Below are positions 2,555 to 64,000 of a stretch of DNA of 64,000 nt, in pieces. The notes below the pieces were generated by a model that saw only the letters and a program-made list of their open reading frames with translations, made no database searches and was not told the origin of the DNA. This stretch comes from a virus (taxonomy: Duplodnaviria; Heunggongvirae; Uroviricota; Caudoviricetes). Within the stretch, counting starts at the first letter, position 1. Every line of letters starts with the position of its first letter. Both the position numbers and the translations under genes were made by a program. The DNA lies in the IMG/VR virus record IMGVR_UViG_3300021387_000074; one strand, given 5' to 3'.

Positions 2555-2879
2555 CTACTGTAACTTCTTTCTTTCCAAATTTTCTATTCAAAAATGCTTG
2601 AATTGCATTCCAAGAAACCTCTGCAGGAAAATGGATTACCCATCGTTCCTGGCAAGCTTCAGAATAAGACATAATAACCCCTTGTTTATTAGTGTCAAAA
2701 CCAAGAGCATCATATTCTGGAACAATTGTAAATTCAATCCAACAGTCTTCATTATTTTCACAAACATAAGAAACTGTTTCTGTTATATAGGCTATATTTT
2801 CATCAAGTTTATAACCTGGGATTTTAAATTGTGTTAAGTCAGCAAATTCAATTGTTTCAATATCTACATTTACCATCAC
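2547..2879 (-). CDS. Hypothetical protein
   Basis: 110-aa ORF overlapping both neighbours; GGAGG RBS upstream. Confidence 0.7.
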   Translation of the reverse strand: MMVNVDIETIEFADLTQFKIPGYKLDENIAYITETVSYVCENNEDCWIEFTIVPEYDALGFDTNKQGVIMSYSEACQERWVIHFPAEVSWNAIQAFLNRKFGKKEVTVDE

Positions 2880-3400
2880 ATTGCCTCCTTGAATGATGTT
2901 ACATATTTTCCTTTTGCTTCTTTTTCTTCAAGAGAAGATCCTGGTATCTCAAACTCAGTGCCTCCATAATTGTCATCGTCGTCCTCATCATCTAAGCGTG
3001 GAACTGTAATTGTCAAACTAGGATTCCAAGCTGGAATACCTACTGGTTGACTTTGGATTACGCCTGACAACACGCCATAGAATTGCTGACAAACAGCAGG
3101 ATCAAGAAATTTTATGCTTATTTCTACATCCGTTGCACCTAGTGGGTTATATGCATCTTGTTTTACATTAGCAGCATACAACATCCAAGCCCCTGGATTA
3201 TCCATTAAAACTTGCATTGCTGCTTGATTACCTTGAGCTATCGCTGCTTTTGTGTAAGTCATGTAAGGTTGCATTGCTTGTTGCATTGATTGCCGCCATT
3301 GACTATAACCATCGTCGCTTGATGTAAATTCTACTTCATTTTTGTTTACTACTTCATTTCTATTTTTTAAAACTTCTCTAATTTTTGATGAAATCGACAC
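2876..3400 (-). CDS. Hypothetical protein, weak tail-tube-like segment
   Basis: GTG start with AGGAG RBS; YNPLG...ISIKFLDPA echoes tube protein YNPLTG...AQFDPAG. Confidence 0.6.
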   Translation of the reverse strand: MSISSKIREVLKNRNEVVNKNEVEFTSSDDGYSQWRQSMQQAMQPYMTYTKAAIAQGNQAAMQVLMDNPGAWMLYAANVKQDAYNPLGATDVEISIKFLDPAVCQQFYGVLSGVIQSQPVGIPAWNPSLTITVPRLDDEDDDDNYGGTEFEIPGSSLEEKEAKGKYVTSFKEAM

Positions 3401-4920
3401 TAATTACTCCTTGGCTGATATCTAATCAGCATTGCTCTAATGGTGTCTGGATTTGTAACCCAGTTTCTACTACCAAATAGAATTCCACCATTATCGTCAG
3501 GATAAACTTTCATAAGATAGAAACCTGTCAAAAGTTTTTCCTTTATATGTTCATAATATGACGCAAAACAAGGAATTGTCAACTCTTCTCCATTGCAGTC
3601 TTCGGCAGTTATGAAGCACATCAGTTTTCCATTCTTCTGATTATGACATCTTAAATCCTTTACATGAACAAATACATAAGCAGATGATTTATCAGCTTCG
3701 CGAATTTCATTAAAATCTCTAAGACATTTATTCAAAGAAACAAGTTTTTCAATCTTTGAAACCATATCATCTGAGAACACTCCGTGGAAGAAGCTACCAC
3801 TAAGATAGTTCTTTTCCATTTCCATATACTCTTCTGGAGTTGTCTTAGAATCAAGCTCGTGATTTTCTACTGTTTCATTCCAAATCTTTATAAGTTTTTC
3901 GGGAGTCTTAGTTGTCTTTTTGTTAATGTAAAACTCTTCAGTGATTTTAAGATATTTTCTTCTTTCACCTTCAGGTATTAAATTATCAAAAGCACCACCA
4001 CCAATTAACGCGAGAGTAATTCTTTTATTAACCTTAGTTCCAAGAGTTTTAATTATAAAATCAATAATACTCTCATAACCTCTGTGCTCTATAATATTTA
4101 GTGCTGGCTCTTCACCTACACCCTTAATCTCATTCAAACCAAATCTTATTTCTTTTTCTGAAACTGGAGTAAAATGAATGTTAGAGCTGTTAACATCAGG
4201 TGGTAAAATTTTAAACCCGTTTTTTTGCGACTCTTTAATAGAATCTTTTAAAACATCTGTTTTTGTTGCATCATAAGTCAAAGACGCTGCCCAAAAGTAT
4301 GGTTTGAAATAACGAGACATATAGAGTGTCTCACACGCAACATAAGTATAAGCCGCCGCATGAGATTTATTAAAAGAATAAGCTGACAAAGTAATCAAAT
4401 CTGCAGTAAATTCATCGATCTCTGCAGAAGTTAGTTTACTCTTCGCTTCTTCTTTAATCGTACTAACCAACTTTTCCCAGGCATCCAAATCTTCTTGCTT
4501 TTTATTTGCTTTACCGAGTTTCTTTAAAAGACCACGAGCGTAATTACCCTTAATTTTTCCGTTTGAAAGATCTTCTACGAGTTTCATAATCTCCTCTTGG
4601 AAGAGAATACAACCGTGAGAATCTTTCAAAAATTTAGATATAGGCTCTGGATACTTTGATCCTTCTGTTCCGTTTGCTACGAAGTCATCAAACGAGAAAG
4701 AAGAACCTGGTCTCGACAAAGCATTCAAACAAGTAAGTTCGTCAAAGTTTTGAGGAATTGCTCTCTGAATCATACCAGATGCAGTATTACCTGAAAACTG
4801 AAATATATTCGCTTGACTCTCATTTACTTGTTGAAATAATTGTTTATCTTCATATGACATTCCGTAATACAAGAACTCTTTTAATTCTTGCTTACTGACA
4901 TTTTCTTGTAAAATTTTCAT
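3400..4920 (-). CDS. dnaE: DNA polymerase III alpha (DnaE), C-terminal part (fingers, HhH, OB fold)
   Basis: IFQF, LNALSRPG, ILFQEEIM, YSFNKSHAAAY, LPPDVNSS, IRFGLNEIKGVG; start moved to ATG 4920 behind AGGGG RBS. Confidence 0.92.
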   Translation of the reverse strand: MKILQENVSKQELKEFLYYGMSYEDKQLFQQVNESQANIFQFSGNTASGMIQRAIPQNFDELTCLNALSRPGSSFSFDDFVANGTEGSKYPEPISKFLKDSHGCILFQEEIMKLVEDLSNGKIKGNYARGLLKKLGKANKKQEDLDAWEKLVSTIKEEAKSKLTSAEIDEFTADLITLSAYSFNKSHAAAYTYVACETLYMSRYFKPYFWAASLTYDATKTDVLKDSIKESQKNGFKILPPDVNSSNIHFTPVSEKEIRFGLNEIKGVGEEPALNIIEHRGYESIIDFIIKTLGTKVNKRITLALIGGGAFDNLIPEGERRKYLKITEEFYINKKTTKTPEKLIKIWNETVENHELDSKTTPEEYMEMEKNYLSGSFFHGVFSDDMVSKIEKLVSLNKCLRDFNEIREADKSSAYVFVHVKDLRCHNQKNGKLMCFITAEDCNGEELTIPCFASYYEHIKEKLLTGFYLMKVYPDDNGGILFGSRNWVTNPDTIRAMLIRYQPRSN

Positions 4921-4927
4921 GATTAAA

Positions 4928-7057
4928 TTATACCCCTGAAGCTTTATTTTGTAAATATGATTTTGATACAATTTTTACAATCCCATCGTCGTCTTCAATC
5001 TTTACAAGCTCTTCATTTACAGATTCTACCGCATTTGAAATTACTTCCAAAACAGTAATAGCCAAAAAGTCATACTTGATTACACCAAGTTCATCCAACT
5101 CTGTGTTTCCACCATTTTCTACAAACGCAGATGCTACTCCATCCTTTGTATGAACAACTGGAATATATTCCCAAACTGGTTTATCCATAATAAGACAACC
5201 ACCAGCGTGTTGACCTACTTGACGCACCTGTCCTATAATCTTTGGAGTGAAATCCAAATATGCTTTATTTCTCTGATAAGTTTCATAAAGTGCTGGAAAC
5301 TGTTCTGCATACATCTTCATATTCTCTTCAAAACTTAATTCATCATTAAGTTCTTTACAGAACGCATTACTTTCACCAAATGGCACATCACACTTTCTGA
5401 GAATATCTTTAATTGCGGATGCCAAGCCTACTGTTCCATAAGCCGCTACACCCATTACTCTTTCTGGACCATACTTTTCAATAAGCATTTGCTTTGCTGC
5501 TTCTTTTGCTTTTGGCTCAAAGTCTGTATCAATATCCAAGCCACCAGAACCACCACGCTTAATCTGAACAATTTCAAGCGGCTTTGTTAAATCTACTTTA
5601 TCTGTTTTACCCAAGAAGAATGGAAGAACATATCTATCATCACATTCTACTTCCATAATTTCATCATAAATAGAAACTTCTTTATCGAGCCACTTTGCTC
5701 TTCTTAATTCTTTAAGGGCACGGTCTTTATATTCTGGATATTCCTTTATTTTCTGAGCTACAATTTTCTTCAAATCGTCAAAGTTATAATTACGGTTCTT
5801 TGTTATATACCAATCACCTTTATAATACTTATAAGTATTTGATACCAATCTGTCGTCAGAAACAAACCTCTCGAACAACAACCCAAGTTTAATTGGGTCA
5901 ATTGCCCAAGAAGTAATTCCAAGACAAGCACATACCAAACTTCCACCCGCAGAACCACGGCCACTTCCAAGCATATATCTCTGTTCTTTTGCCCAATTAA
6001 TTACAGAAGACAAATTCAACAAATAACGATATGCACCTTTTTTCAAAAGTGTTTCAAGTTCCAACTCAAGTCTGTCTTTATATTCTTGTGGACAATCTTC
6101 ATAATCACAATTAAAATGTTTTGACAATCCTTCCTTTGCTAGTCTTACGAAATCGTCTTCCTCATCAAACGAGAATCTTGGCAATTTCATACCTGTTCCC
6201 AAAGGAATAACAAAATTACACTTTTCAGCAATTTTGTCTGTGTTAGCACACCACTGCTCTATCTGTTCGTCTGTATAACCATAATTCCAACCCTTGTTGA
6301 ACTGTTTGAAATCATCTACACTCTGATAGAACAACGATTTGCACTTATATGTATCATCACCTTCTGAATCTTCATCTTTTCTAAGGTTAAAAATAAATCT
6401 CTGAGTTTGCGCACCTTCTCTTGTTGCGTAATGCACGTCGCCCGTAATTACAACTGGAACATTATACTTTGCTGCAGTTTTTATAATCCAATCATTATAT
6501 TTCTTTTGATCTTCTACAAGTTCGTTTAACTGAATTTCAGCATAAAAGTTTTCGCCAAACTCATCAACAAATCTTTTAAAATAAGCTTCTGCTTTTTCTT
6601 CATTACCAGCCAAAACACACTGAGAAAATACAGAGGCCAAACAAGCAGAGCCTACAATTATTCCTTCTTTATATTGAAACAATTCTTCAAATGTATTTCT
6701 TGGTTTATAATAGAAGTGATCTTCATCAATGTTTGAGATATAATTCAAATGGCAAAGATTTTTCCAACCAGTTTCATTAGAAGCCAAAAGAATAATATGA
6801 TTATAATGAGTTCTCTTTCTTTTCTTACCTTCCATTGTTACCAATTCTTCTACAAGATATCCTTCCATTCCGAGAATTGGTTTTACACCTTTTGAAATCG
6901 CATATTGTTGAAATTTAAAAAGTCCAGACATCATTCCATGGTCTGTTAAAGCAAGTGCTTTATGCCCATTATTTACTGCTTGATCTACTAATTCTGTTAC
7001 ATCTGAAACTCCGTCATAGAAACTTCCATTTTTACTATGAACATGTAAATGAACCAT
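4928..7057 (-). CDS. dnaE: DNA polymerase III alpha (DnaE), N-terminal part (PHP and palm) with ~100-aa insertion
   Basis: HLHVHS, ALTDHG, TGDVHY (PHP metal ligands), GRGSAGGSLV, LLFERF, DIDTDF, HAGG, KYDFL. Confidence 0.95.
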   Translation of the reverse strand: MVHLHVHSKNGSFYDGVSDVTELVDQAVNNGHKALALTDHGMMSGLFKFQQYAISKGVKPILGMEGYLVEELVTMEGKKRKRTHYNHIILLASNETGWKNLCHLNYISNIDEDHFYYKPRNTFEELFQYKEGIIVGSACLASVFSQCVLAGNEEKAEAYFKRFVDEFGENFYAEIQLNELVEDQKKYNDWIIKTAAKYNVPVVITGDVHYATREGAQTQRFIFNLRKDEDSEGDDTYKCKSLFYQSVDDFKQFNKGWNYGYTDEQIEQWCANTDKIAEKCNFVIPLGTGMKLPRFSFDEEDDFVRLAKEGLSKHFNCDYEDCPQEYKDRLELELETLLKKGAYRYLLNLSSVINWAKEQRYMLGSGRGSAGGSLVCACLGITSWAIDPIKLGLLFERFVSDDRLVSNTYKYYKGDWYITKNRNYNFDDLKKIVAQKIKEYPEYKDRALKELRRAKWLDKEVSIYDEIMEVECDDRYVLPFFLGKTDKVDLTKPLEIVQIKRGGSGGLDIDTDFEPKAKEAAKQMLIEKYGPERVMGVAAYGTVGLASAIKDILRKCDVPFGESNAFCKELNDELSFEENMKMYAEQFPALYETYQRNKAYLDFTPKIIGQVRQVGQHAGGCLIMDKPVWEYIPVVHTKDGVASAFVENGGNTELDELGVIKYDFLAITVLEVISNAVESVNEELVKIEDDDGIVKIVSKSYLQNKASGV

Positions 7058-7077: not shown

Positions 7078-7106
7078 ATTATACCACAAATAAAAAAAGC
7101 AGTCAA
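7078..7106 (-). promoter_or_regulatory. Sigma-70-type early promoter for the dnaE operon
   Basis: TTGACT-N17-TATAAT with extended TG on the minus strand. Confidence 0.8.
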
Positions 7107-7121
7107 GACTGACTGCTTTTT
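7092..7121 (-). terminator. Intrinsic terminator overlapping the dnaE promoter -35
   Basis: AAAAGCAGTCA-agac-TGACTGCTTTT hairpin with A/T tracts on both sides. Confidence 0.75.
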
Positions 7122-7140: not shown

Positions 7141-7551
7141 TTATTCGTCAAGGAACGGTTTTCGCCATTTTGCTGCTGGCTTTACAGTAAACCAAGTTGG
7201 CTTTACAATTTCTATTGTTGCCTCTTTAGTGCTACTAATATTTCCCGCCATAGCTGGGGATAAATAAAGATCTATTCCATTTTCTTTAAACTTTTTTAAA
7301 GCTTCAACAAAATCATCAAGAACAGTAACATCCGCATAAAGCGAATCGCCTTCAACATGGAAATTTGTAATTGTGCCAACCAAATGTTCAATATCGGCAT
7401 CATCTTTAAAACCATCATCTGGCACATTATCAACTAATGGAACAATATAATCTCTATGTTCTTTTTCAAACTCTTTTAAAGTTTTTAAAGAATAATAATA
7501 TCCATTTGCATTTACAATATCAGCTCTTAAAAATTCAACTGTCTTTTTCAT
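7141..7551 (-). CDS. Diverged, probably inactive prohead-protease (gp21-like) paralog
   Basis: ADIVNANGYYY / IEHLVGTITNF...LYADVTVL / GIDLYLSPAMAG / KPA track the protease motifs ADKINRNLRVY / LERIAVTF...LEGKA / GFKICFSTRCSG / SPS; the GELxH His is absent. Confidence 0.6.
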   Translation of the reverse strand: MKKTVEFLRADIVNANGYYYSLKTLKEFEKEHRDYIVPLVDNVPDDGFKDDADIEHLVGTITNFHVEGDSLYADVTVLDDFVEALKKFKENGIDLYLSPAMAGNISSTKEATIEIVKPTWFTVKPAAKWRKPFLDE

Positions 7552-7700
7552 TCTATTTCTCCTTTTTCTTTAAGTCTATCTATTTCTTTTTTAAAAGAAG
7601 GTGAGTTATTATAAAAAAAATCAAATACCTCATCTTCTGGTATAGCCTCTAATTGTTTTAAACAATCATCAAGAATTTGTAAACTTTCTTCTTTAGTCAT
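7548..7700 (-). CDS. Small hypothetical protein (50 aa; not in ORF track)
   Basis: MTKEESLQILDDCLKQLEAIPEDEVFDFFYNNSPSFKKEIDRLKEKGEIE; ATGA overlap with the next gene. Confidence 0.7.
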   Translation of the reverse strand: MTKEESLQILDDCLKQLEAIPEDEVFDFFYNNSPSFKKEIDRLKEKGEIE

Positions 7701-7704
7701 TTTA

Positions 7705-7971
7705 TTACCCCGCTCTTGTCCTAATTAAACCAGGCCACACGTCTGCTATACTGTCTGGACGCTGAGCTTCTAAAAAATCGTCTTGAATTGATCCATTCTT
7801 AACCATATAATTATAAGCATTTTCAAGAGCTTGTTGAGTATTAAGTCTTATTTCAGCATCGACAATATCTCCTACTAACCATTTCCATCTTTCCTCAAGA
7901 TCTTGCTCAGGTGTTTGATCTTCTTTTTCTGCTTCTTTAAAAGTTTCTGCCAAAAAAGTTTTTACATACAT
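7705..7971 (-). CDS. Stand-alone paralog of the major capsid protein N-terminal propeptide
   Basis: 24 of 47 residues identical, ungapped, to MCP residues ~13-59 (RWxW..DI.DAE..LNTQ..LEN.Y.YM...G.I). Confidence 0.85.
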   Translation of the reverse strand: MYVKTFLAETFKEAEKEDQTPEQDLEERWKWLVGDIVDAEIRLNTQQALENAYNYMVKNGSIQDDFLEAQRPDSIADVWPGLIRTRAG

Positions 7972-7974
7972 TTT

Positions 7975-8295
7975 TTAGTCCTTAAATTTTGCAATGTCTT
8001 CTTTTGTTACGCCCATATTTACAAGGAGTAAGTTAAGATATCCCATAACGTCAACAACATCGTTTACCCTTGGTTGCTTATCTGGGCAGTTCTTAATTCT
8101 TGAAAGTTTATCATCAAGTCGCTGATAAATTCCATTAAGTGCTACTGTATCTGGCCCCATAAATCTTGCAAATAAACCAAGTGGCTGAGAACCAATATTA
8201 CCATACTGAGTATTTTTGTAAATCTGCATATCAGCCATTGCGTCATAAATATCGCTAATTTTTCTATTAACTGTTTCTAAATTATTTTCGCTCAT
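7975..8295 (-). CDS. Nucleotide-modification-associated domain 1 (DUF1599-like) protein
   Basis: KNTQYG ... RLDDKLSRI ... DVVDVMGY motif pattern. Confidence 0.7.
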   Translation of the reverse strand: MSENNLETVNRKISDIYDAMADMQIYKNTQYGNIGSQPLGLFARFMGPDTVALNGIYQRLDDKLSRIKNCPDKQPRVNDVVDVMGYLNLLLVNMGVTKEDIAKFKD

Positions 8296-8659: not shown

Positions 8660-8688
8660 ATTATATACAAAACTATAAAATTTGTCAA
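8660..8688 (-). promoter_or_regulatory. Consensus sigma-70 early promoter driving the 8653-7141 operon
   Basis: TTGACA-N17-TATAAT on the minus strand. Confidence 0.85.
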
Positions 8689-8726: not shown

Positions 8727-8734
8727 AAGATAAT
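8727..8734 (+). promoter_or_regulatory. Late-promoter-like motif AAGATAAT upstream of scaffold (also 9551-9558 upstream of MCP)
   Basis: Variant of the recurrent AAGTTAAT motif preceding structural genes. Confidence 0.6.
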
Positions 8735-8759: not shown

Positions 8760-9557
8760 ATGGATAAAAATCAGAAACTTTCGCTTCTTAACGAAGAGCT
8801 TGATGAAGAGTCAGCTAACTACATTACTGAAGCAATTCAGTCGTGGAAGGAAGAAGTTATGGCTCAGCTTCAGGAAGAAGTTGAAAGAGCAAAAGCAGAC
8901 AAATTAGAAGAACTGGAAGAGCTTAACCTTAGATACCGTGAAGAGTTGAAAGAAGAATATTCTGACAAGCTCACAACAGCTCTTGCAGAACTTAAAGAAA
9001 GTGTTAAAGCTGATGCTACTGCTAACGTTTTAAAGAACAATCCAGAATTAAAAATTCTTGAATCTATAAAAGAATTGGTTGCACCACTTCTTAACGAAGA
9101 TTTTAGAGAGAATACTTATTCTGACACAATTGCTCAATTAGCAGAAGAAAATGAAGCTTTAAGAAGAGAACAGGAAATCATGGAAGGCGCTCAAACTCTA
9201 TCAGAACTTTTGGCTCCTTACTCTGATAAGACACAAAAGTTGGTTCTTTCTTTGATTAAAGAAGGAAGCCCAGAAGAGGTAACAGAACAGTTCTACACAA
9301 TTATGGAATCATTGCAGGATGTTTTCGGCGAAGCTGAAGACAACAATGAAGACGATGACGACACAGATGATGAAGACAAAGGTTCTAAAAAATCTGGCGA
9401 CGACGATGATGGTGATGACGAAGACGACGATGACGAAGACGAAGACGACTTAGACGAAGACTTCATTAATGAAGGATTTGACGGAGACGACGACGAAGAC
9501 GACGGAGACGTTCTTGGTTCTGTAAAAAACATTATGAAACAATATTCAATAAGATAA
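8760..9557 (+). CDS. Prohead core scaffolding protein (gp22-like)
   Basis: Coiled-coil, acidic, many (L/I)xE sites, Asp/Glu tail, directly upstream of MCP. Confidence 0.85.
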   Translation: MDKNQKLSLLNEELDEESANYITEAIQSWKEEVMAQLQEEVERAKADKLEELEELNLRYREELKEEYSDKLTTALAELKESVKADATANVLKNNPELKILESIKELVAPLLNEDFRENTYSDTIAQLAEENEALRREQEIMEGAQTLSELLAPYSDKTQKLVLSLIKEGSPEEVTEQFYTIMESLQDVFGEAEDNNEDDDDTDDEDKGSKKSGDDDDGDDEDDDDEDEDDLDEDFINEGFDGDDDEDDGDVLGSVKNIMKQYSIR

Positions 9558-9574: not shown

Positions 9575-11089
9575 ATGTTAAATACTAACTTTATCGAAAA
9601 AAATCAGTATGAAGAACAGCTTAACAATAGATGGGATTGGATTACTGAAGACATCGACGATGCAGAAACAAAACTTAACACTCAGTTAGTTCTTGAAAAC
9701 TCGTATCGTTATATGATTACTGAGGGATTAATCCCTAGATCTTGGCTCGAGAACAACGTTCTTTCAGAAGACGTTCTCGAAGAAGCTCCACAGATGAGAG
9801 GCGCAGTTGGTGATTATGTTATCCCTAAGGTAATGTTCCCAATCATCAGACGTGTTATGCCAGAACTTATCGCTAACAAATTGATTTCAGTTCAGCCAAT
9901 TCAGCAGCCAACTGGTGTAATCTACTACATCAACTATGACTACTCTACAACAAAGGGCGAAATCAAAGCTGGCGACGAATTCTCTGCTAACCCACAGCAG
10001 ACAACACCTGCTTTCGCTACTTGGTATTCAAGTGAAAAAATCGGACCATTCGTTGCAACTGTTGACAGTGCTAACGTTGGTGCAGACGCAAACGTTAAAT
10101 TTGTTGGTGGAAAGGCTATTACAGACTTCCTCGGAACAGATGTAACAAAATATAAGATTAAACGTTTCGAAGTTTACAATACAACTACTGGTAAAGCTAT
10201 TGCTACTGTTTACGGTGCAGCAGCTGGTGCAGCAGCAAATGTAACTTACGACGGAGTAAAGGGTGAATTCACTGTTAAAGTTCCAGCTTCAGCTATGGCT
10301 AGCGGAAAAGACAATGCATTCAAGGCTTTCTTGGTTTATGATCAGGAAGGATCAAGCTTCATTCCAGAGATGGAATTCCACATCGACCACATGAACGTTG
10401 AGACAACTGAACGTAAATTGAAGGTTAGATGGACAAAAGAAGCTGAACAGGATATGATGGCTTACCACAAGATCGACGTAGAACAGGAACTTGTAAAAGT
10501 TGCAGCAGTTCAGACAAACTACGAAATCGACCGTGAAGTATTGAGATTCATCGATGACCACATCATCACTGAACTTTCTCAGAGCCACAACTGGACAGAC
10601 GACGCAGCAACAACTGGAAACAATACTCAGGGTAACTACCTTGATAGACATCGTTGCTTGGCACAGAAGCTTTACGCAGCTTCTACAAAGGTTGCAACAT
10701 TCAACCACCTTGGACCATGTGATTGGGCTGTTTCTTCTCCAAAGATTGCAGCAGTTCTTCAGATGCTCCCAGATTGGAAAGCAGGAGAAATTGCTAATGG
10801 TAAGACAACTTACTACAACGCAGGTTCTCTCGGAAACGGTTCTTTGGCTATCTATGTAGATCCAAACAGAACTGGTGGACAGGAAGACGAACTTACACTT
10901 GGTTACAAGTCTAAGGATTCAACATACGGAGCTGGTGTAGTTTACTCACCATATGCTAACTGGATGTCAGGAACAGTTGTTAATCCAGACAACTTCAACA
11001 ACATCCGTGGTTTCTTCAACAGATATGCTTTGAGCATGGCACCAAGAGGACAGTACAACTACGCTCGTGTAACAATCAACAACATCTAA
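9575..11089 (+). CDS. Major capsid protein (T4 gp23-like)
   Basis: LVLEN, PIIRRVMPELIANKLISVQP..QPTG, RKLKVRWT.EAEQD, EIDRE, GVVYSPY. Confidence 0.95.
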   Translation: MLNTNFIEKNQYEEQLNNRWDWITEDIDDAETKLNTQLVLENSYRYMITEGLIPRSWLENNVLSEDVLEEAPQMRGAVGDYVIPKVMFPIIRRVMPELIANKLISVQPIQQPTGVIYYINYDYSTTKGEIKAGDEFSANPQQTTPAFATWYSSEKIGPFVATVDSANVGADANVKFVGGKAITDFLGTDVTKYKIKRFEVYNTTTGKAIATVYGAAAGAAANVTYDGVKGEFTVKVPASAMASGKDNAFKAFLVYDQEGSSFIPEMEFHIDHMNVETTERKLKVRWTKEAEQDMMAYHKIDVEQELVKVAAVQTNYEIDREVLRFIDDHIITELSQSHNWTDDAATTGNNTQGNYLDRHRCLAQKLYAASTKVATFNHLGPCDWAVSSPKIAAVLQMLPDWKAGEIANGKTTYYNAGSLGNGSLAIYVDPNRTGGQEDELTLGYKSKDSTYGAGVVYSPYANWMSGTVVNPDNFNNIRGFFNRYALSMAPRGQYNYARVTINNI

Positions 11090-11225: not shown

Positions 11226-12074
11226 CTATTTTAACAACGCTAATACATTTTGTGATTGTGAGTTTGCTTGACTAAGCATAGCGACAGAAGCCTGAGAAAG
11301 AACCTGCTGCTTTGTATATTCTACCATTTCAGTAGCCATATCAGCATCACGAATTCTTGATTCTGCAGCTTGTGTGTTTTCAGCTGCTACATTAATTCCT
11401 TTCTGTGCCATCTCCATTCTGTTCTGATAAGCACCAAGATCTGCTCTCTGCTTATTAACATTTTTCAAAGCTTCATCAAGTGTGGCAATTGTTGTATTTG
11501 CCTCATCAGGTGATGAAATAGAAATCTGATTGTCTTCACCCTGGATACCTTTCAGCCCAAGAGCAGAAGCAGTCATTGTTCCTATATATGCTCTGATATT
11601 CTGATCTGCGTTTGCACCAACCTGGAATTGCATTACAGTATCAGAATCTTTTGAGAATCTTCCAGTTAATAAATTCATTCCGTTAAACTGTGCTGAAGAA
11701 GCAATTCTGTCAACTTCTGCTACAAGCTGAGAAACTTCTACCTGAATCTGCATTCTATCTTCATCTGAGTATACACCATTTGAAGCCTGAACTGCAAGTT
11801 CACGAATTCTCTGAAGAACATCAGTTGTTTCTGCTAGATAACCTTCTGCTACCTGAACAAAAGAAACAGCATCTCCAATGTTTCTTGAAGCCTGATTAAG
11901 ACCACGAATTTGAGATCTCATCTTTTCAGATACAGCCAAGCCAGATGCATCATCACCTGCTTTGTTAATTCTTTCACCACTTGAAAGCTTTGCCATTGAA
12001 TTCTGTAAGTTTGCCGCATTAATTCCTTCTTGGCGACTAGCAAACAAACTTGCCATATTGTGATTTATTACCAT
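11226..12074 (-). CDS. flaB: Flagellin, spirochete periplasmic filament core FlaB type
   Basis: MVINHNM...[66 protein letters not shown]; 282 aa without a D2/D3 insert. Confidence 0.97.
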
Positions 12075-15750: not shown

Positions 15751-18567
15751 ATGAAAAGTTTTAAAGATTTTGTTTTAACCGAAGATACAAACAAGCAAAC
15801 ATTCTTAGACAAATATAAAGAAGACGCAGATAAGGCGATTAATGCCGTTAAACGCTTGCTCGCAAAAGCAAAAAAGGAAAACCTTAAAGATGTAGAAGAC
15901 GCTTGTAATAATGTTCTAAATGCTGCTTCTGTTGTAACTGAAGATGACGAAGTAGACGGAAATAACGCTCTTGATACAGATACAGATACAGATACTACAG
16001 AAGAAAAAAGCCCAGAAGCAGAAGCTATTGAAAAGAAACTAAAAGAACTAGACGCTGTTGTTGCTAAACATGGCATTGATATCAATAAAATGTTTATGGA
16101 CGCTTCTGAAATAGAGCAGGGTGATATCGCAGATCAGGTTATTACTTTTTTAAAAAAACTTGGTGCCGACAAAAATGTAATAATTGGTGCTAGTAATTCA
16201 ATGCTAAAGTTCTTAAATAACGCCGACACAAACAAAGACAGAGTTTTTTCACCAGAAGAAATAAGAGAATTTGTTTCTGCAAAAGATAAAGCAAACTTGG
16301 CTGGCTCTGGAAAAGTAGACGAAACAGTTGCTAGAGTTTTACCATTTGTTTTATTTATTTTATGGGTAAACACAACAGCGCCAGATGTATTGCAGAAAGT
16401 AAGCGAAAAAACACATGGTAGAGCACAAGGCGAAGGTGTTTCAGAAAACTTCAACTCTATAATTAAAGCTGTGTCAGACAAAAGACTGAAATTAGACATC
16501 AAAAACGAGCCATTTAAAATCTTAGGAAATAAATTTGTAAATGACATGCTTTCTGAAGACAAGTACAATGAGCTTGTAGATAAGTTGAATAACATAGCAA
16601 AAGAGATGAAAAAGCCTATCAAAAACCCTACTGAAAAGCCTACTTCACCAAGCAAGAATGAAACTAGCTCTCCAACAAACACTCAGTCTCAAGAAACTCC
16701 AAATAAGGCTAATGAAACAGAAACTCCTTCCAGTAATCAAGAAGAAACTTCTGAGACTCCTAAAACTTCTCCTGAAGGAGCTAATACCGAAGACGAAGAA
16801 GAAGTAAGAAACAGCACTAAGGATTTAATTACAAGTCTTACAAGAGATTCAAAGAAAGAAGAAGTAAACGCTGCTATAGAAAAAGTATTCGGAACCGCCA
16901 CAGATGCAAACGAAGACAGTGATGCAAACAGAGGTACTGTATTTGCAAACTTAGTAGATGCTATAGAAAAAGCAAAGAAGAATAATCAATCTCTTTATGA
17001 CGTTTCTCACACTAAAAAGAATGAAGACGAAGCTGAAGAAAAGCCAGAAGTACAAACAGAAGATTTCTTCTTTGATTGTGCAGATAACAAGCTTATAAAT
17101 GAAACACTTGTTGGAAGAAAAATTGGTGCGGCTCTTGGTAGAGTAAATATAGGCAACAACGAGAGAAATACAAACTCTTGGAATAAATGTTTAATCGACC
17201 TTAGAAAGAAACAAGTTGCAACATTAAATAAAGCAAAAACAATTATGGCTAAAATGTTTGACAATATCAACTCTGTTTCTAAGAAAGGCAATCTTTTGGT
17301 AGACCTTAAAAAACTTGACTCTAACTATAAGTCAAGCATGACAGCCATTTTTATAGATTACAGAAAAGCAAACAGTTATAATGGCATTGGTGCTATGGCA
17401 CACGACTTAAGAGTTGCTGGCTTAAAAGGTGCTAAAAAAGCAAAAGAGGCTGAAGAAAACTCAAAGTTTGGTCAAGAGTCTAAAATTATAAACCAGAACA
17501 TAGAAAACAAAATTGAAAGCATAAACGCTCAGAGTTTGGACAAATATATCCAGGAAGATCTTAGAGATGTTTTTGCGTATGCTGTTTTAAATCAAAGCAA
17601 TCCTATGGTTTTACAAGAGCCAGACGTTGACAGTGATACTGGAAAAATGACTGTTATAAAGTCAGCCTTTAATGCTGTAGCAAACAACAACGAAGTGTTT
17701 GGCGTTGGAAATGAAAGAGAACTTATGGTATTCCTTGGTAAGCTTTTGGAGAAATCTAAAGAAGATCAGGAAATTGGAAGATGGCTTGCTAACTATAAAG
17801 GTGTGTATGATAAAAAGAAGCTTATGAAACCAATCAGAAATGTAATTTTTGATCTTAACAAGGTTTCTGGTTCTATATCTAAGAAGTTATCTAATTCACC
17901 AGACCCTTATGCAGATATTTGTTCTGCTCTTGGTTTAACACAAGAAAACTTGCACGAATGTGTTAAATCATTTAAGGAATATTATTTACTTACAGAACAA
18001 TTATTTAAGAGAAACCCTAAGCCACAGCAATCAGCTACATTCACTGATGAAGAGAAAAAATCTCTTGCAACATTGTGTTTGCTTGCAGCAGTTGGAAAGC
18101 CAAATGATCAAAAACTTTCAGCTTTGAAGACACCTGCAGCATCAATTGTTTTAAGTAAAATAGGTAGGGATGAGGCAATTTCTCAACACTTAACTATAGA
18201 TGACATAATCAAATCTGCTCAAAAGTTTGTTGAAGAAAATAGCGACAAGGTAAACAAGGCTGCTCAGGGACTTATGACTCTTATCAACAAAGAGCCACAA
18301 CCACAACCACAGCCAACAGAGCAACCAACAACACAACCACAGCAACAACAGCCTGCCGCTGGTCAAAATGGACAAACTAATGTAAACGACATATCGGCTC
18401 AAAACGACGACTCTGAAACTGGCGGAACAGATTATCACTATGCTGATGGTGAATCGGTTGTTACAACTCCACAAGCAACAGTAACAACTGGCGCGGTTGG
18501 CGGATACACAATCCCAGATAGGCTGACAAAACAACTAATAAGAAGAAGAATTAAATCATTTGTATAA
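15751..18567 (+). CDS. Large candidate internal head (ejection) protein
   Basis: N-terminal MKSFKDFVLTE resembles T4 capsid-targeting sequences; late motif upstream; low-complexity linkers; C-terminal MCP-like peptide. Confidence 0.65.
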   Translation: MKSFKDFVLTEDTNKQTFLDKYKEDADKAINAVKRLLAKAKKENLKDVEDACNNVLNAASVVTEDDEVDGNNALDTDTDTDTTEEKSPEAEAIEKKLKELDAVVAKHGIDINKMFMDASEIEQGDIADQVITFLKKLGADKNVIIGASNSMLKFLNNADTNKDRVFSPEEIREFVSAKDKANLAGSGKVDETVARVLPFVLFILWVNTTAPDVLQKVSEKTHGRAQGEGVSENFNSIIKAVSDKRLKLDIKNEPFKILGNKFVNDMLSEDKYNELVDKLNNIAKEMKKPIKNPTEKPTSPSKNETSSPTNTQSQETPNKANETETPSSNQEETSETPKTSPEGANTEDEEEVRNSTKDLITSLTRDSKKEEVNAAIEKVFGTATDANEDSDANRGTVFANLVDAIEKAKKNNQSLYDVSHTKKNEDEAEEKPEVQTEDFFFDCADNKLINETLVGRKIGAALGRVNIGNNERNTNSWNKCLIDLRKKQVATLNKAKTIMAKMFDNINSVSKKGNLLVDLKKLDSNYKSSMTAIFIDYRKANSYNGIGAMAHDLRVAGLKGAKKAKEAEENSKFGQESKIINQNIENKIESINAQSLDKYIQEDLRDVFAYAVLNQSNPMVLQEPDVDSDTGKMTVIKSAFNAVANNNEVFGVGNERELMVFLGKLLEKSKEDQEIGRWLANYKGVYDKKKLMKPIRNVIFDLNKVSGSISKKLSNSPDPYADICSALGLTQENLHECVKSFKEYYLLTEQLFKRNPKPQQSATFTDEEKKSLATLCLLAAVGKPNDQKLSALKTPAASIVLSKIGRDEAISQHLTIDDIIKSAQKFVEENSDKVNKAAQGLMTLINKEPQPQPQPTEQPTTQPQQQQPAAGQNGQTNVNDISAQNDDSETGGTDYHYADGESVVTTPQATVTTGAVGGYTIPDRLTKQLIRRRIKSFV

Positions 18568-23213: not shown

Positions 23214-23657
23214 TTATTTAATTTCTACTTTTTTTATTTTATTTTCTAGTTTTTTTTCTCTTGCAGGAACGGATATTACAAGAATACCATCTTTGAATTC
23301 TGCATTTGCTTTTTCGAAATCGAATTTATCTTCTGGTATAAAATACTTATAAGAAAATTCTATATCTTTAAAAGTATCTACCAAAATCTTTGCTTTTGGT
23401 TTTGGTTTAAAAGCTTCTTCAGCTTCCCCTCTTTTTCTCTTACCGTAGTCTTTTGTAGTAGAAAGAATTAAACAGTCTTTTCCAAAAGAAATATCCAAGT
23501 CTTCTTTTGAATAACCTGCCAAAGCAAACTTAAAAGTAACTTTGTTGTCTCTCTTAATTACTTTTAATGGCGGGAACGAAGGTACTGAATACTTAGTACC
23601 AGTAAAGAATGAATCGTCGAACAATTTCGACATCTCATCAAACAAATCATTAAACAT
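23214..23657 (-). CDS. Small heat shock protein (Hsp20/alpha-crystallin)
   Basis: FPP...ALAGYSKEDLDI...AEFKDGILVISVP...KVEIK. Confidence 0.9.
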   Translation of the reverse strand: MFNDLFDEMSKLFDDSFFTGTKYSVPSFPPLKVIKRDNKVTFKFALAGYSKEDLDISFGKDCLILSTTKDYGKRKRGEAEEAFKPKPKAKILVDTFKDIEFSYKYFIPEDKFDFEKANAEFKDGILVISVPAREKKLENKIKKVEIK

Positions 23658-46359: not shown

Positions 46360-46998
46360 TTAGAACGACTCTTCAATAATTGATTTTAGCGTTCTTGATT
46401 TTGAGTTAACGTCTTCACTCAACATTTCCGATTCGTATACTGTATCTGAGACTGCTGCTTGGCAAGATGGTGAACCTACAACGTCAATAGAAATAATTTT
46501 AAGTCCTGGACAAACTTCAACAATAGGTCTACCTTTAGATCTTGCTCTAACATCTTCTGTAAGAAGTGGACCATTGTAAGGTTTTACTTTACCAGAACAT
46601 CTAGTAGAGAAGCAAATTTTGAAACCAGATTTTGCAAGTCCTTCAACTGTCTTACCAGCTTCTGTAAGAGTAGGAATTGCTTTTCCTTCAAGTCTTCCAG
46701 CTTCTTCATTCCAGTTAAGTTCTGGGAATGTAACAGCAATTCTTTCAAGGTGAACCTTTGGATCGCTAGCATGTTCAAGCTCTCCAAATACTGGCTGTCC
46801 AGAAGTTTTAGCAGCTTCAATAGCAGCAAGACAAGCCTCTCTAAGAACTTGCTTTGGATAAACTCTAAGGTTTCTATTTATTTTGTCTGCTTCAGAAAGG
46901 ACTCCTCTAAAGCAAATTTGCTTTTTACCATCTCTTATTTCTTCTTCGGCTAATATACTAAACTCATCGGTAAACTCTTCATTAATTAAGTCTTCCAT
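46360..46998 (-). CDS. Prohead core protease (T4 gp21-like)
   Basis: ADKINRNLRVYP, FGELEH, TEAGK, FSTRCSG, DVVGSPS; AAGTTAAT at 47013-47020. Confidence 0.9.
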   Translation of the reverse strand: MEDLINEEFTDEFSILAEEEIRDGKKQICFRGVLSEADKINRNLRVYPKQVLREACLAAIEAAKTSGQPVFGELEHASDPKVHLERIAVTFPELNWNEEAGRLEGKAIPTLTEAGKTVEGLAKSGFKICFSTRCSGKVKPYNGPLLTEDVRARSKGRPIVEVCPGLKIISIDVVGSPSCQAAVSDTVYESEMLSEDVNSKSRTLKSIIEESF

Positions 46999-59961: not shown

Positions 59962-62900
59962 ATGACATTTATAGAGCCTTCTCTAGAAAAGGTATTTCAA
60001 ACATTAGTAGACAACAACGAATTAATAAATCATTTAAAAAGCCAAGATTACTTAGTTACTAAAAGTTCTTTGTATGATACATATACAAGAGAACAAGTAC
60101 AAGACATGGAAGTTGCTATTTACACCAACAATGTAAACACTCTTTATGAATTGGCTCAGGTTCTATTAAACTTTTCTGACGAAATAAAAAATAATCAAAT
60201 ATGGTATCTCTTAAGCCACAAGATTGCTTGGCAAGAAATTAGTGCTTGTATTGGTATAGAACCAAAATATTTAAATCCAGAAACTTATAAACTCATAATG
60301 TATACTTACAAGTACTGCGTTGTTTCTTCATTCTTCCAGAACAATAAAGATAGATTCATTCCAGAAGCTGACTTCCTTGAAATGGAGAAGAATAGTGTTG
60401 GCAGTGCTTTCTATGATGCTATGGCTAAAGAGTTTGATAAACTCGATGAAGTAATTAATAAGTGTCTTGAATACAGAGATTATGATACTATTCCTTACGA
60501 CTTAATAAACTATCTCACACAGCTTCTTGGTTTTGAGAAGAAAGACATAAATGCCGATACAGAAACAGAACAAAGTTTTAGAGAGCTTGCTAAAAACATA
60601 TTAGACATATATAGAATAAAAGGTACAAACTATTCATTTGAATTATTCTTTAATTTCTTAGGTTTCAATATTAAAATAAGTGAATACTATTTTGATAGAC
60701 GTTTGTATTACACAACAAGTAATGCTGGTAACGAAGAAACAGAAACTTCTAACAATGCTGAGTTTGAATACTATTTGACAACTGTAAATCCAGCTGACAA
60801 CAAATTGCCAAACATTGGTATTAGTGAGATTGTTTCTCCTAGCGATATAACACCTCAGTATTCCCTTCTTGAGTTTAATAAACTCTGCCAAGAATACGGC
60901 CCAGCCGCTGTTCTTGGTTATTCTCCAATTTACCCAGTTTATAACAGTAATGGTGATTTAATAGAATACAAGAAATACGAAGGCAAAGTTTATAAATACT
61001 TTAAGACTAATGTTATATACTACACAGTTGGTGTAGATATGAGCAATCCTACAGAGAAACAATTAACTGCCGTAACTAAATATTTGGAGTTCTTAACACC
61101 TTCATACGTTATGAGAACTATCAAGGTAAATACTTATAGTGAGAAATCAGAAGAGCCTATAGGATTTGACGGCGATGGTAATGAAACTCCAGATGCTTAT
61201 GGAAACTATAATGCATTCCAAATGCTTGATAGTGAAGACTGGTCACAGCATTTTAAAGATGAATATACGTCTAGTTCAACTAGCGGTTTGCTAAAAGTAA
61301 CAGACGAAAACAATTACGACGGAAAAGAAGAAACTTATAAGACTTACACAAACTCTGTTGGAACAAATAAATTCAGATTGCCACTCGGAAGAAAAACAAT
61401 ATCTAAATCTGTTAGTAGATATTTGCATGGCGGCGATGGTGTTAATAAGCCAGGTGCTAGAAGATTGAAGTTCTATATCCTACATACACTTGATGGTGTA
61501 GAAACTGACGACTGGGGCGCACAAAATGTTATCATAGCACCTTATTATACAGTTCCACCATTCGTTGGCGCTGAGAACTATACAACTATCAAAAATGCTT
61601 GGGATAAACCAACTAAGAAAATAAACTTAACTGGTGGTGATGGTGAAGGTGGAGAAGAATGTTTAAAGACTCAAATCAGAGATGCTGATTTGAGAACTGC
61701 CGTTAATTATGTTACAGATAAAACAATTGATGATTTCATACAAGAGGCAGAGTTTAATGAACTTAAATATGGTAAAACATTCGCTAAGAAACTTGTAAAG
61801 GTTAGAACTATTGCTTATGGAACTGGTAAATATAAAAGCGCTTATGATGCTTACTTATGGGAATTTAACCAGAACAATACTCACATTTGTAATATAAGTT
61901 GCCCATTCGGAACATTTAATAAAGAAATACTTCATAAAGATGAAACTGCTTCTAACAAATCAACATTTGACACAGAACTATATGAAGATTCTTTAATATC
62001 TAATTATAGCAAGAATGATATCCTTAAGAACCTAAATTTCGGTGACTATGTTTTAGGATACTCTGGTGATTTAAATAGTGGTAAATTAAATCTTTACAGA
62101 TATGGATATACTCCTTACCCAATCGCTGGTGATAGCAATCAGTATGCCGCTACTTATCTAAATTACTTGAATAGTTTTGAGTATGAAGTAAAGAAAGATT
62201 ATAATGGAACACTTAGCAATGTTGAAAGTGTTAATCTTCCGACTAGTTATATAACAAAGCAAACTGTTTTGGAAGCACAGCAGTATGTTGATCAACTTAG
62301 AGAAGGAATGATAGAGGCGGCAAATAGCAAGCCACAAAGTGACTGGCTGCCTTTAGATTATATAACAAGCAAGTTGTTCTACATTGCTGCAGATGGTGAA
62401 TACTACAGAGCTGTTAAGGTTCCAGCTTATAATGGTATTTCTAATAACACATACCCAAGTGGAAAAAATCACAACTTCTCAACATTGAATGAAGCTCTTA
62501 CATACTTCAATAACAATCCAGATGAGAAAGTAAATAATGCAGAATTCTATGTTAGTTCTACAACAGATAAAGGTTTATATACATTTAAGTATAAGAACAG
62601 AATTAACGGTTGCTTGATATACTCTACTGCAGATGAGAAACTTTATTATGTAACTGGTTCTTCAAGACAAGATATTAAAGAGATTAAGAATTGGTTCGGA
62701 AACCTTTCTATCAACTCTTATGTAGAAGACTCTGATGGAGAATATTATGAAGACTCTAATGGTCTTATGAATAAATATGTTAATGGAGTAACAGCTAGTA
62801 AACGCTATTCTCTTTCTGCAAATGGTAATATCGTAAAAGCAGAAATAAATAAATATGATTACTATTGGAAAGGTTATGACGAAGCAGCCGACGAAGAAGA

Positions 62901-64000
62901 TTTTATCTTCTACAATTCAGAACATAAGATTACTTGGCCAGAACTTAATTTAAAGAATGAAGTAATCTCAAGACCTATAAAAAGAGAAACAGACTTAGAT
63001 TTTGATGAAGACGCTGAGAAATATAATATTACTTACGACAGCTTAGTTTCTGGTTCTCGTCTTATTGGTGATGATATAAAGAATAAATTCAAAATTGTTT
63101 CTGGTGTACCAACATATTATAACACTTTTGGACAGAGAATTATTGACGAAATTTCTTTGAGAACAATAGATAACTTTACTCCAAATGAGCACGTTGATTG
63201 GTATAAGGAAGACTTGGATGGCCACGTTAGAGGTTTGTTGTCTATCATAGAAAACGCAATGAAGGAATTAACAAATTCTCCATTTACAAGAGAGTTTGTA
63301 TTCTACTCTAAAGCCTCTGACTTCTTCCAAGATTATTATAGAATTGTTATTCTAGGAAACTATTCTAAAGAATCTATTCCAAGAGAGATACTTGAAAGAT
63401 TAACAAACAAATCTTACAACTTAATAGAAGATGCTGATATAACACAGGTGTTGAAAGATAGAATAACAACTTACTATAACCAAGCCGTTAATCAGTGTGC
63501 TGATAGACTTGACTCTATCTCAAAAGATAGAGTTTATTACTCTTTCATTGAGAACTGGCGTGATACTATAAAAATTAAACTTCCAGATTGGAGAGAGAAA
63601 GGAACTTTAGTTCTTGACGATAATGGCGAAATTGATGGTGAAGCTATGTTCAAAGACCCATTAAGTTTGAAAAATAACTATGGTGCTAACAACTCAAAAC
63701 AGATAGCTGGCAAGTTCTATTTCGATGAAAGAACAGCATTTATTGCAAAAATAAATGCAAAGATAACTGACTTAAAGAATAAGTATGGTGATAACATAAA
63801 CTTTGATTTCACTACAGAAGATAGAACTGCTCTTCTTGGTAAAGATGCTTACTCTTTGACAGTTAATGGTTCTCCAAAATTCTTTGAAGTTTCAAATTTT
63901 GCTTATAATTATAAAACATATAAGGATGTTAAAACTCTAAGAATAGAAGATGAAATTACATTATCATATGATTCTATCTACAACTTCTATATACCTTACT
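59962..64000 (+). CDS. Baseplate wedge/tail protein (gp7/P2 gpI-like N-terminus), partial; not in ORF track
   Basis: ATG 59962 after AGGAG; open to window end; LINYLTQLLG...RELAKNILDIYRIKGTNYSFELFFNFLG. Confidence 0.8.
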   Translation, partial: MTFIEPSLEKVFQTLVDNNELINHLKSQDYLVTKSSLYDTYTREQVQDMEVAIYTNNVNTLYELAQVLLNFSDEIKNNQIWYLLSHKIAWQEISACIGIEPKYLNPETYKLIMYTYKYCVVSSFFQNNKDRFIPEADFLEMEKNSVGSAFYDAMAKEFDKLDEVINKCLEYRDYDTIPYDLINYLTQLLGFEKKDINADTETEQSFRELAKNILDIYRIKGTNYSFELFFNFLGFNIKISEYYFDRRLYYTTSNAGNEETETSNNAEFEYYLTTVNPADNKLPNIGISEIVSPSDITPQYSLLEFNKLCQEYGPAAVLGYSPIYPVYNSNGDLIEYKKYEGKVYKYFKTNVIYYTVGVDMSNPTEKQLTAVTKYLEFLTPSYVMRTIKVNTYSEKSEEPIGFDGDGNETPDAYGNYNAFQMLDSEDWSQHFKDEYTSSSTSGLLKVTDENNYDGKEETYKTYTNSVGTNKFRLPLGRKTISKSVSRYLHGGDGVNKPGARRLKFYILHTLDGVETDDWGAQNVIIAPYYTVPPFVGAENYTTIKNAWDKPTKKINLTGGDGEGGEECLKTQIRDADLRTAVNYVTDKTIDDFIQEAEFNELKYGKTFAKKLVKVRTIAYGTGKYKSAYDAYLWEFNQNNTHICNISCPFGTFNKEILHKDETASNKSTFDTELYEDSLISNYSKNDILKNLNFGDYVLGYSGDLNSGKLNLYRYGYTPYPIAGDSNQYAATYLNYLNSFEYEVKKDYNGTLSNVESVNLPTSYITKQTVLEAQQYVDQLREGMIEAANSKPQSDWLPLDYITSKLFYIAADGEYYRAVKVPAYNGISNNTYPSGKNHNFSTLNEALTYFNNNPDEKVNNAEFYVSSTTDKGLYTFKYKNRINGCLIYSTADEKLYYVTGSSRQDIKEIKNWFGNLSINSYVEDSDGEYYEDSNGLMNKYVNGVTASKRYSLSANGNIVKAEINKYDYYWKGYDEAADEEDFIFYNSEHKITWPELNLKNEVISRPIKRETDLDFDEDAEKYNITYDSLVSGSRLIGDDIKNKFKIVSGVPTYYNTFGQRIIDEISLRTIDNFTPNEHVDWYKEDLDGHVRGLLSIIENAMKELTNSPFTREFVFYSKASDFFQDYYRIVILGNYSKESIPREILERLTNKSYNLIEDADITQVLKDRITTYYNQAVNQCADRLDSISKDRVYYSFIENWRDTIKIKLPDWREKGTLVLDDNGEIDGEAMFKDPLSLKNNYGANNSKQIAGKFYFDERTAFIAKINAKITDLKNKYGDNINFDFTTEDRTALLGKDAYSLTVNGSPKFFEVSNFAYNYKTYKDVKTLRIEDEITLSYDSIYNFYIPY

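Follow-up and report, generated by a model that had tools for sequence, protein, structure and literature searches.

The DNA analysed here, called the window below, is a 64,000-nt stretch of the viral record IMGVR_UViG_3300021387_000074. Its genes, which include a gp23-type major capsid protein (MCP), a gp21 protease, baseplate and tube proteins, Pol III alpha and NrdDG, place the molecule in a large uncultured T4-like gut myovirus, and sheep and cattle gut sequencing runs contain DNA near-identical to it. On the minus strand, at 7705..7971, lies o88, an 88-residue open reading frame with an ATG start and its own TAA stop. Residues 22–68 of its product (7768..7908, minus strand) align without gaps to residues 13–59 of the MCP, which is encoded on the plus strand. 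An earlier note, made by reading the letters, had counted 24 identities over these 47 positions and had described a free-standing frame closed by its own stop on the strand opposite to the MCP; the count is exact (BLASTP E 2e-13), and stop and orientation are as described. The Smith-Waterman score of the pair is 130, against 31.8 ± 4.9 and a maximum of 60 over 2000 shuffles, and a six-frame scan identified o88 as the sole second copy of the propeptide in the window. Pfam and PHROG contain no match for o88, and the MCP profile match to it is restricted to positions 6–56. Having no HK97-fold body, o88 is by its sequence neither a gp23-type MCP nor a vertex protein. We describe it as a stand-alone mimic of the MCP propeptide and refer to this form as type A.

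The parent MCP gene (9575..11089, plus strand) was assigned from PF07068 (E 2e-55) and from matches to T4 gp23 structures (E 1e-16). T4 gp21 cuts 65 residues off gp23 (PMC9958956). In the window, we place the propeptide at MCP residues 1–70 (9575..9784, plus strand), since E70-A71-P72 is nearly invariant among 26 related MCPs and [ILF]-x-E motifs are twelvefold enriched before E70, with 6.3 per 100 residues (109/1717) as against 0.53 after it (61/11527). It is thus a well-supported inference that the copied segment belongs to a propeptide removed by a cut at E70/A71. A search with the propeptide profile matched no solved structure. The earlier claim that o88 covers the removed part is accurate for 47 of about 70 propeptide residues, given this inferred cut; the other 41 residues of the frame are not propeptide. 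Homology stops at MCP residue 59, and the L-x-E-A-P maturation junction is absent from o88. The protein contains four [ILF]xE sites, and its F-L-E-A (66–69) pairs with W-L-E of the MCP and not with the junction. The C-terminal tail (residues 69–88; 7708..7767, minus strand) is missing from type A members of 57 and 60 residues. For six of seven type A tails the best placement is MCP ~91–104, with p 0.19–0.88 against shuffles; a possible remnant of MCP 91–102 would therefore be in the right register, at a level that is not significant.

Upstream of the MCP, a likely scaffold protein (8760..9557, plus strand) precedes the capsid gene in most loci, carries 21 [ILF]xE motifs and has a putative late motif at 8727; no family match names the protein. 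The active prohead protease is gp21 of family S77 (46360..46998, minus strand; PF03420 E 6e-12, phrog_207), with His76, Ser131 and Asp172 invariant. It lies 37 kb from the scaffold-MCP pair in the window and within a few kb of it in the distant relatives L018–L023 and L050–L066. The gp21 of L015, L016 and L048 is interrupted by an insert of 300–340 residues, intein-like by size.

At the DNA level, o88 and the MCP share 90 of 141 positions (32, 33 and 25 of 47 at the three codon positions), and 10 of the 24 identical residues are encoded by different codons. Three other origins were considered and rejected: a contig-end artefact, given the gene's own stop and intact flanks; a recent duplication, given the diverged DNA and the separate clade described below; and an inverted relic of a protease-scaffold-capsid cluster, as the gene order does not fit and a scaffold remnant is absent.

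The gene is the third of five (o125-o106-o88-o50-o136) between a sigma70-type promoter, TTGACA-17-TATAAT with 12/12 matches (8660..8688, minus strand), and a hairpin resembling an intrinsic terminator (7094..7121, minus strand). The same hairpin occurs in L024 and L026; L026 has the same sigma70 site and L024 an 11/12 site before o106. Its neighbours are o106 (phrog_1485; 7975..8295, minus strand; dN/dS 0.05), which forms the upstream flank of a variable slot, and o50 (7548..7700, minus strand; dN/dS 0.08), a conserved small frame between o88 and o136. The ribosome-binding site of o88 is weak. A putative late motif, AAGWTAAT, precedes scaffold, MCP, tail tube and protease. Its total in the window is not above chance (22 versus 17 ± 4.4), and its position alone is: 16 of the 22 copies have a start no more than 50 nt downstream, against a positional expectation of 2%. 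The o125-o136 unit contains no exact copy. Because o88 sits in a sigma70-terminator unit without this motif, its expression is likely early. Four metatranscriptome contig sets contain scaffold and MCP in 4/4 and o136 in 3/4; for o88 they show only a trace, in a single bin of one run at depth 1.46, and such contigs cannot show level or strand.

Several other features of the window deserve mention. The 22 AAG(T/A)TAAT sites (e.g. 8727, 9551, 32045, 47013) also precede NrdD and several unknown ORFs. Perfect sigma70 promoters at 8660-8653 and 13483-13475 (minus strand) end 7–8 nt before the ATG of o125 and o124, respectively, which suggests leaderless early mRNAs for both genes. The terminator hairpin, taken at 7078-7121 (minus strand), shares positions with the polymerase promoter's -35 box, an arrangement kept in L024 and L026. 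Pol III alpha itself (3400-7057, minus strand) is split into two ORFs, the N-terminal one with an internal stretch of ~100 residues between Pfam matches; L001, L004 and L025 have more breaks or endonuclease-like inserts. Convergent on the MCP lies a flagellin gene of 282 residues (11226-12074, minus strand; PF00669 and PF00700) with a strong ribosome-binding site. It seems to be phage-owned, since L002 and L003 also carry it at 62% identity, and it may be a clue to the host, or to some interference with motility or with adsorption to flagella. The window further encodes an Hsp20 chaperone (23214-23657, minus strand), a frame of at least 1346 residues that runs off the window end with a late motif upstream (59962-64000, plus strand), and o938 (15751-18567, plus strand; 938 residues), which also has a late motif. 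The N-terminus of o938 resembles what we take to be the capsid-targeting pattern, making it a candidate internal head protein.

Gene content varies at the slot that follows o106. Six IMG/VR relatives cover it, and type A is absent from five of them and present in L024. L001 has an unrelated 115-residue ORF at this place, L004 an unrelated 213-residue ORF and L031 nothing, and L002 and L003 have an endonuclease-like ORF, judged by eye (L002 was read; L003 has matching flanks and no o88). Among four DNA runs, three carry o88. In the fourth (X4), 340 other letters stand in place of 7704-7971 in a strain whose flanks are near-identical. As this near-identical strain has another gene in the slot, o88 is an optional, dispensable gene. 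One contig of a further run (X8) has an extra A in the homopolymer at 7951, giving a +1 frameshift with a predicted stop at codon 12; this may be an assembly error.

The search for stand-alone homologs proposed in the earlier note was productive. All ten candidate clusters for type A proved homologous, giving 22 proteins of 57–95 residues at 67–95% identity, some on contigs of up to 234 kb; their DNA context was taken from the window and L024. An alignment of 11 sequences has 32 invariant columns, and two clusters are shortened to 57–60 residues. A close relative, L001 (MCP 82% identical), has no type A and carries instead another stand-alone copy, type B, after its polymerase gene. Type B comprises 11 homologous clusters out of 24 candidates (85–154 residues), is also present in L025 and L029, and is absent from the 64-kb window. 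Its layout is hairpin, acidic spacer and MCP ~96–127, followed by a stop. The match of its tail to MCP 96–127 reaches p ≤ 0.027 in 8/8 tails, with one placed at 81–99. The hairpin is lost or degraded in 3 of the 11 homologs (P0029, P0032, P0033). In a tree of 40 core columns, types A and B group together to the exclusion of 22 MCPs (UFBoot 74; 93 for A and 96 for B), which gives modest support to a single old origin. The o88 core shows a likeness of 0.53 to its own MCP and of at most 0.57 to other MCPs.

Among 41 IMG/VR loci with propeptide patterns, short closed frames occur solely in the close group. Of 19 whole records, three (G001, G018, G019) have stand-alone copies; a further set of 16 more distant records has none. 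All these records are less than 90% complete, and G017 (207 kb, 88% complete) has no copy. A second match in G020 (E 0.0017) was dismissed because it lies inside a 676-residue frame, and one in L032 is spurious, in the opposite frame. No match to o88 was found in 50,697 GenBank phage records, GTDB contigs or the ESM Atlas.

The earlier note had seen selection rather than a fresh accident in the conserved residues. A fresh accident can be set aside, given the ten clusters, type B and the kept columns: o88 retains 13 of 16 MCP-conserved columns compared with 10 of 24 others (p 0.014), and retention is similar in L024 (p 0.029), P0023 (p 0.016) and L025 (p 0.002). Column entropy of the copies correlates with that of the MCPs (rho 0.58). 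Type B is under purifying selection (dN/dS 0.21, 0.11–0.39), and comparisons of A with B cores give 0.27–0.31 with intervals below 1. Judged from these sequences, the stand-alone lineage is constrained in the long term. Selection on the type A form itself is unproven. In the only testable pair, window and L024, dN/dS is 0.66 for the whole gene (CI 0.36–1.28), 0.14 for codons 1–21 (CI 0–0.67; just 21 codons) and 1.27 for the core (CI 0.44–5.85, this one pair), compared with 0.03–0.19 in neighbouring genes and 0.30 in the MCP propeptide. Core dN is 0.24, against a whole-gene dN of 0.02–0.04 in the neighbours. Between the two type A alleles there are 14 differences, which show no significant avoidance of conserved columns (p 0.23), and both o88 differences among the DNA-run rows listed change an amino acid. 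Since the core interval includes 1, relaxed selection explains the fast change equally well. A protein search returns intact calls only, so broken type A alleles are undercounted. The pattern that the earlier note had named as refuting, absence or frameshift in relatives combined with dN/dS near 1, is thus found in part: type A is absent from 5/6 slots, replaced in 1/4 runs and frameshifted once, and the dN/dS intervals of the single pair span 1.

Ahead of the propeptide-derived part, o88 carries a short N-terminal tag (residues 2–14; 7930..7971, minus strand), YVKTF followed by an imperfect LAETF copy. Every one of the 22 type A proteins begins with YV(E/K)TF, and in most of them a second, imperfect copy follows. 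In type B, two YVEDF-like copies are the most invariant columns and are kept even in members without the hairpin. The general form YV(E/K)(D/T/S)F is N-terminal in type A, internal in type B and near the C-terminus in four other families. With the letters of A and B, further matches were found in 3 of 23 genes in L025, 2 of 33 in L026 and 1 of 7 in L029, all at most 16 residues from the C-terminus, where 0.03–0.04 would be expected per locus; seven more distant loci gave one non-terminal match, and L002, L004 and L031 none. The tag patterns were partly drawn after seeing matches, and stand-alone copies were removed by hand from these counts. The carriers form three families that are unrelated outside the motif and have no useful family match. 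Allowing Ser, a post hoc choice, adds a fourth: the 115-residue ORF that replaces o88. Two unrelated genes thus take turns in the slot, with nothing but the tag in common. The tag probably docks its carriers on one common partner. It may also be what selection keeps, as it is invariant in type B while the hairpin is lost or degraded in some members. Small proteins ending in the tag are encoded at 2876-3400 (minus strand) in the window, at 3418-3870, 4277-4444 and 13093-13419 in L025, and at 3157-3501 and 17255-17587 in L026.

Downstream in the same unit, o136 (7141..7551, minus strand; 136 residues) is weakly assigned as a likely protein of the prohead-protease fold without the catalytic His and Asp. 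The earlier note had overlooked both this neighbour and the tag. Its ESM Atlas neighbours are S77, S80, YonD_N and DUF2213 clusters (0.93–0.94). Aligned with gp21 by hhalign, it shows 95–100 colinear columns (probability 42–43%, E 3e-4). The pairwise comparison is not significant, the fold call is weak at 4.3 bits for o136 where the family median is 7.0 and the shuffled maximum 5.8, and the AF2 model (pLDDT 39) is unusable. In the o136 family, the nucleophile position holds Ser or Cys, with Ser in 115 of 121 sequences; the His region has Asp, Asn or Val and the Asp region Phe or Thr, positions placed from a weak alignment. S77 gp21 and o136 are hence alike in a colinear profile of ~100 columns, a weak similarity, and differ in that o136 lacks His and Asp. 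It is probably protease-like and catalytically inactive, on weak sequence grounds. A match of o136 to o938 looks compositional. As o136 is much commoner (133 clusters versus 10 for o88) and occurs at the slot without o88 in L001 and L031, a fixed partnership of the two is unlikely.

The AF2 model of o88 contains helices at residues 21–33 and 39–58 (pLDDT 87–90 at 31–60 and 74 at 21–30, both ends of low confidence), which makes the helical hairpin of the propeptide its predicted fold. Foldseek returned 0 matches at E ≤ 0.001 when this model was compared with viral structures. In a complex prediction of the kind that the earlier note had proposed, MCP 71–504 with scaffold and o88 passed at 0.48, whereas the best of three controls scored 0.00, as did the complex once the MCP chain was replaced and the scaffold kept. 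The runs share at least 50% of contacts, with a partner pLDDT of 57–60. Of 157 solved pairs, 116 reach the mark, as do 2 of 215 mismatched ones; the band up to 0.60 holds just 18 of the 157 and both of these mismatches. The models thus weakly suggest that o88 may dock on the capsid body. Pairs that resemble a split gene, such as o88 and the MCP, can pass by likeness; the pass would mean that o88 is still propeptide-like enough to fit the capsid body, and not that the two bind in the cell. Scaffold received no support as a partner from this prediction, which is not evidence against binding.

What might such a gene do? We tentatively favour the possibility that o88 is an early decoy of the nascent capsid protein, while holding it short of probable. 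The gene is optional and derives from the front end of the parent MCP gene; its product, likely made early and predicted to be a hairpin behind a short common tag, would in soluble form occupy a host factor that recognises the N-terminal part of newly made capsid protein. This putative partner could itself be the sensor of a defence system, or else a factor in translation or chaperoning that such a sensor monitors. An assembly gene is expected to be late and conserved, whereas o88 looks early, optional, swapped and fast-changing with its fold kept, and the early-type promoter context favours a decoy over a role in capsid size. The preferential retention of MCP-conserved columns, the conflict-like pattern of an accessory, precisely swapped slot with fast amino-acid change, and the long persistence of the A and B clade under purifying dN/dS point in the same direction. 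Early by its motifs, accessory and variable, o88 has this much in common with phage anti-defence decoys. There are precedents: EF-Tu binding and the triggering of Lit both map to the first quarter of T4 gp23 (PMC3014915), an MCP activates CapRel (PMC13728456), and Thoeris is reportedly another MCP-sensing defence. Counting against a decoy, no significant match links type A to the Gol-equivalent region, the core interval includes 1, a frameshift allele and two clusters cut at 57–60 residues exist, the tag outlasts the hairpin in some type B members, the ribosome-binding site is weak, and the complex prediction, itself a weak pass, suggests the capsid body as a possible partner.

That last point leads to a rather unlikely alternative, in which o88 binds the MCP in trans at the native propeptide site, where it would slow or chaperone early capsid protein, or poison the head assembly of a co-infecting relative. 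The score of 0.48 and its loss on replacing the MCP agree with this, and the N-terminal region of T4 gp23 is thought to affect assembly and head length (PMC9546572). The pass is weak, however, and of the kind that a split-gene-like pair obtains by likeness; a covalent propeptide should, we reason, outcompete a free copy; the promoter is early-type and the late motif absent; the core has no real preference for any MCP; and relatives without type A at the slot carry the same head genes. Type A could also be a decaying or near-neutral relic of an old partial duplication, with only type B or only the tag maintained, which we consider unlikely. Intervals that include 1 for both whole gene and core, the frameshift allele, the shortened clusters, the absence from 5/6 slot records and the two amino-acid-changing differences would all follow from decay; yet 22 proteins in ten clusters keep an open frame with the same core residues, MCP-conserved columns are kept above others, and dN/dS is low at the N-terminus.

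Two further readings concern the prohead. We regard it as quite improbable that o88 is a core passenger like the T4 internal proteins, targeted by tag or hairpin and trimmed by the protease. The diverse internal proteins of T-even phages have just a short targeting sequence in common (PMC3012670), much as unrelated small proteins here have just the tag in common, and in o88 the tag is followed by [ILF]xE sites, of which the protein has four; but the T4 targeting sequence is N-terminal (PMC9958956), while the tag sits at the C-terminus of four families and inside the type B proteins. Trimming would, moreover, leave no cargo domain. The targeting-like pattern, as we presume it to read, matches o938 and not o88. 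Very improbable, in our estimate, is a role against the prohead protease itself, in which o88, as its decoy substrate or its inhibitor, would work in a pair with inactive o136 to silence the protease until assembly and to avoid protease-sensing immunity. The two genes do share a transcription unit, o136 is colinear with gp21 and lacks His and Asp, and prohead protease activity is reported to activate CBASS (bioRxiv 10.64898/2026.03.04.709575). Against it stand the 133 o136 clusters to ten of o88, the relatives that have o136 without o88, a weak fold call, and the missing L-x-E-A-P cut region in o88. A broader version of the decoy reading, which we think distinctly unlikely, is a modular early counter-defence kit: tagged, unrelated small proteins in interchangeable slots, some of them harmless copies of the phage's own immune triggers (the propeptide, the adjoining dead protease), made in advance to saturate sensors. 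Such a kit would amount to self-mimicry of the phage's own triggers.

In the mostly open-access literature covered, we did not find stand-alone capsid-propeptide genes described. We conclude that o88 represents a kind of gene that is real and, as far as this literature goes, undescribed, with its function unproven, and that this form may be decaying. Late structural proteins, which phages cannot easily alter, set off a number of bacterial immune systems; if the decoy reading is true, a pre-made copy of the capsid front would be a new way round that limit, and o88 a ready bait for the sensor or host factor. If o88 instead acts on assembly, it would be a natural soluble gp23 propeptide. The common tag, for its part, provides a way into a group of early proteins that lack annotation.

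A close known counterpart of o88 is the T4 gp23 propeptide (PDB 6UZC, 7VS5, 5VF3). The parent MCP is homologous to gp23, and o88 duplicates the greater part of the corresponding region of that MCP, though as a separate gene on the other strand, with a sigma70-type promoter and a tag and without a capsid body. In the Gol/Lit-EF-Tu and CapRel SJ46 systems, the front quarter of gp23 or the MCP is the host-sensed trigger, like the segment copied here; those triggers lie inside the MCP, whereas here the segment is a separate gene. The type B tail (96–127) significantly reaches the second half of the Gol-equivalent region, MCP ~85–114, and the type A tail is in the right register without reaching significance. 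The Gol region is presumably placed correctly on this MCP by the structure match to T4 gp23. T4 IPI, IPII and IPIII are small, dispensable and diverse and have just a short peptide in common, like the tagged proteins here; the tag differs in sequence and position, and the body of o88 is capsid-derived. Capsid paralogs and redirectors of satellites (Ccm, CpmB, Sid) and the stand-alone protease-propeptide inhibitors I9 and I29 are, together with T4 gp24, duplicates or mimics that act as competitors in assembly or proteolysis, and o88 resembles them in this respect. It differs from gp24 and Ccm, which have the full HK97 fold, from the satellite proteins, which target a helper and not their own genome, and from I9 and I29, which copy the protease's own propeptide and not that of its substrate.
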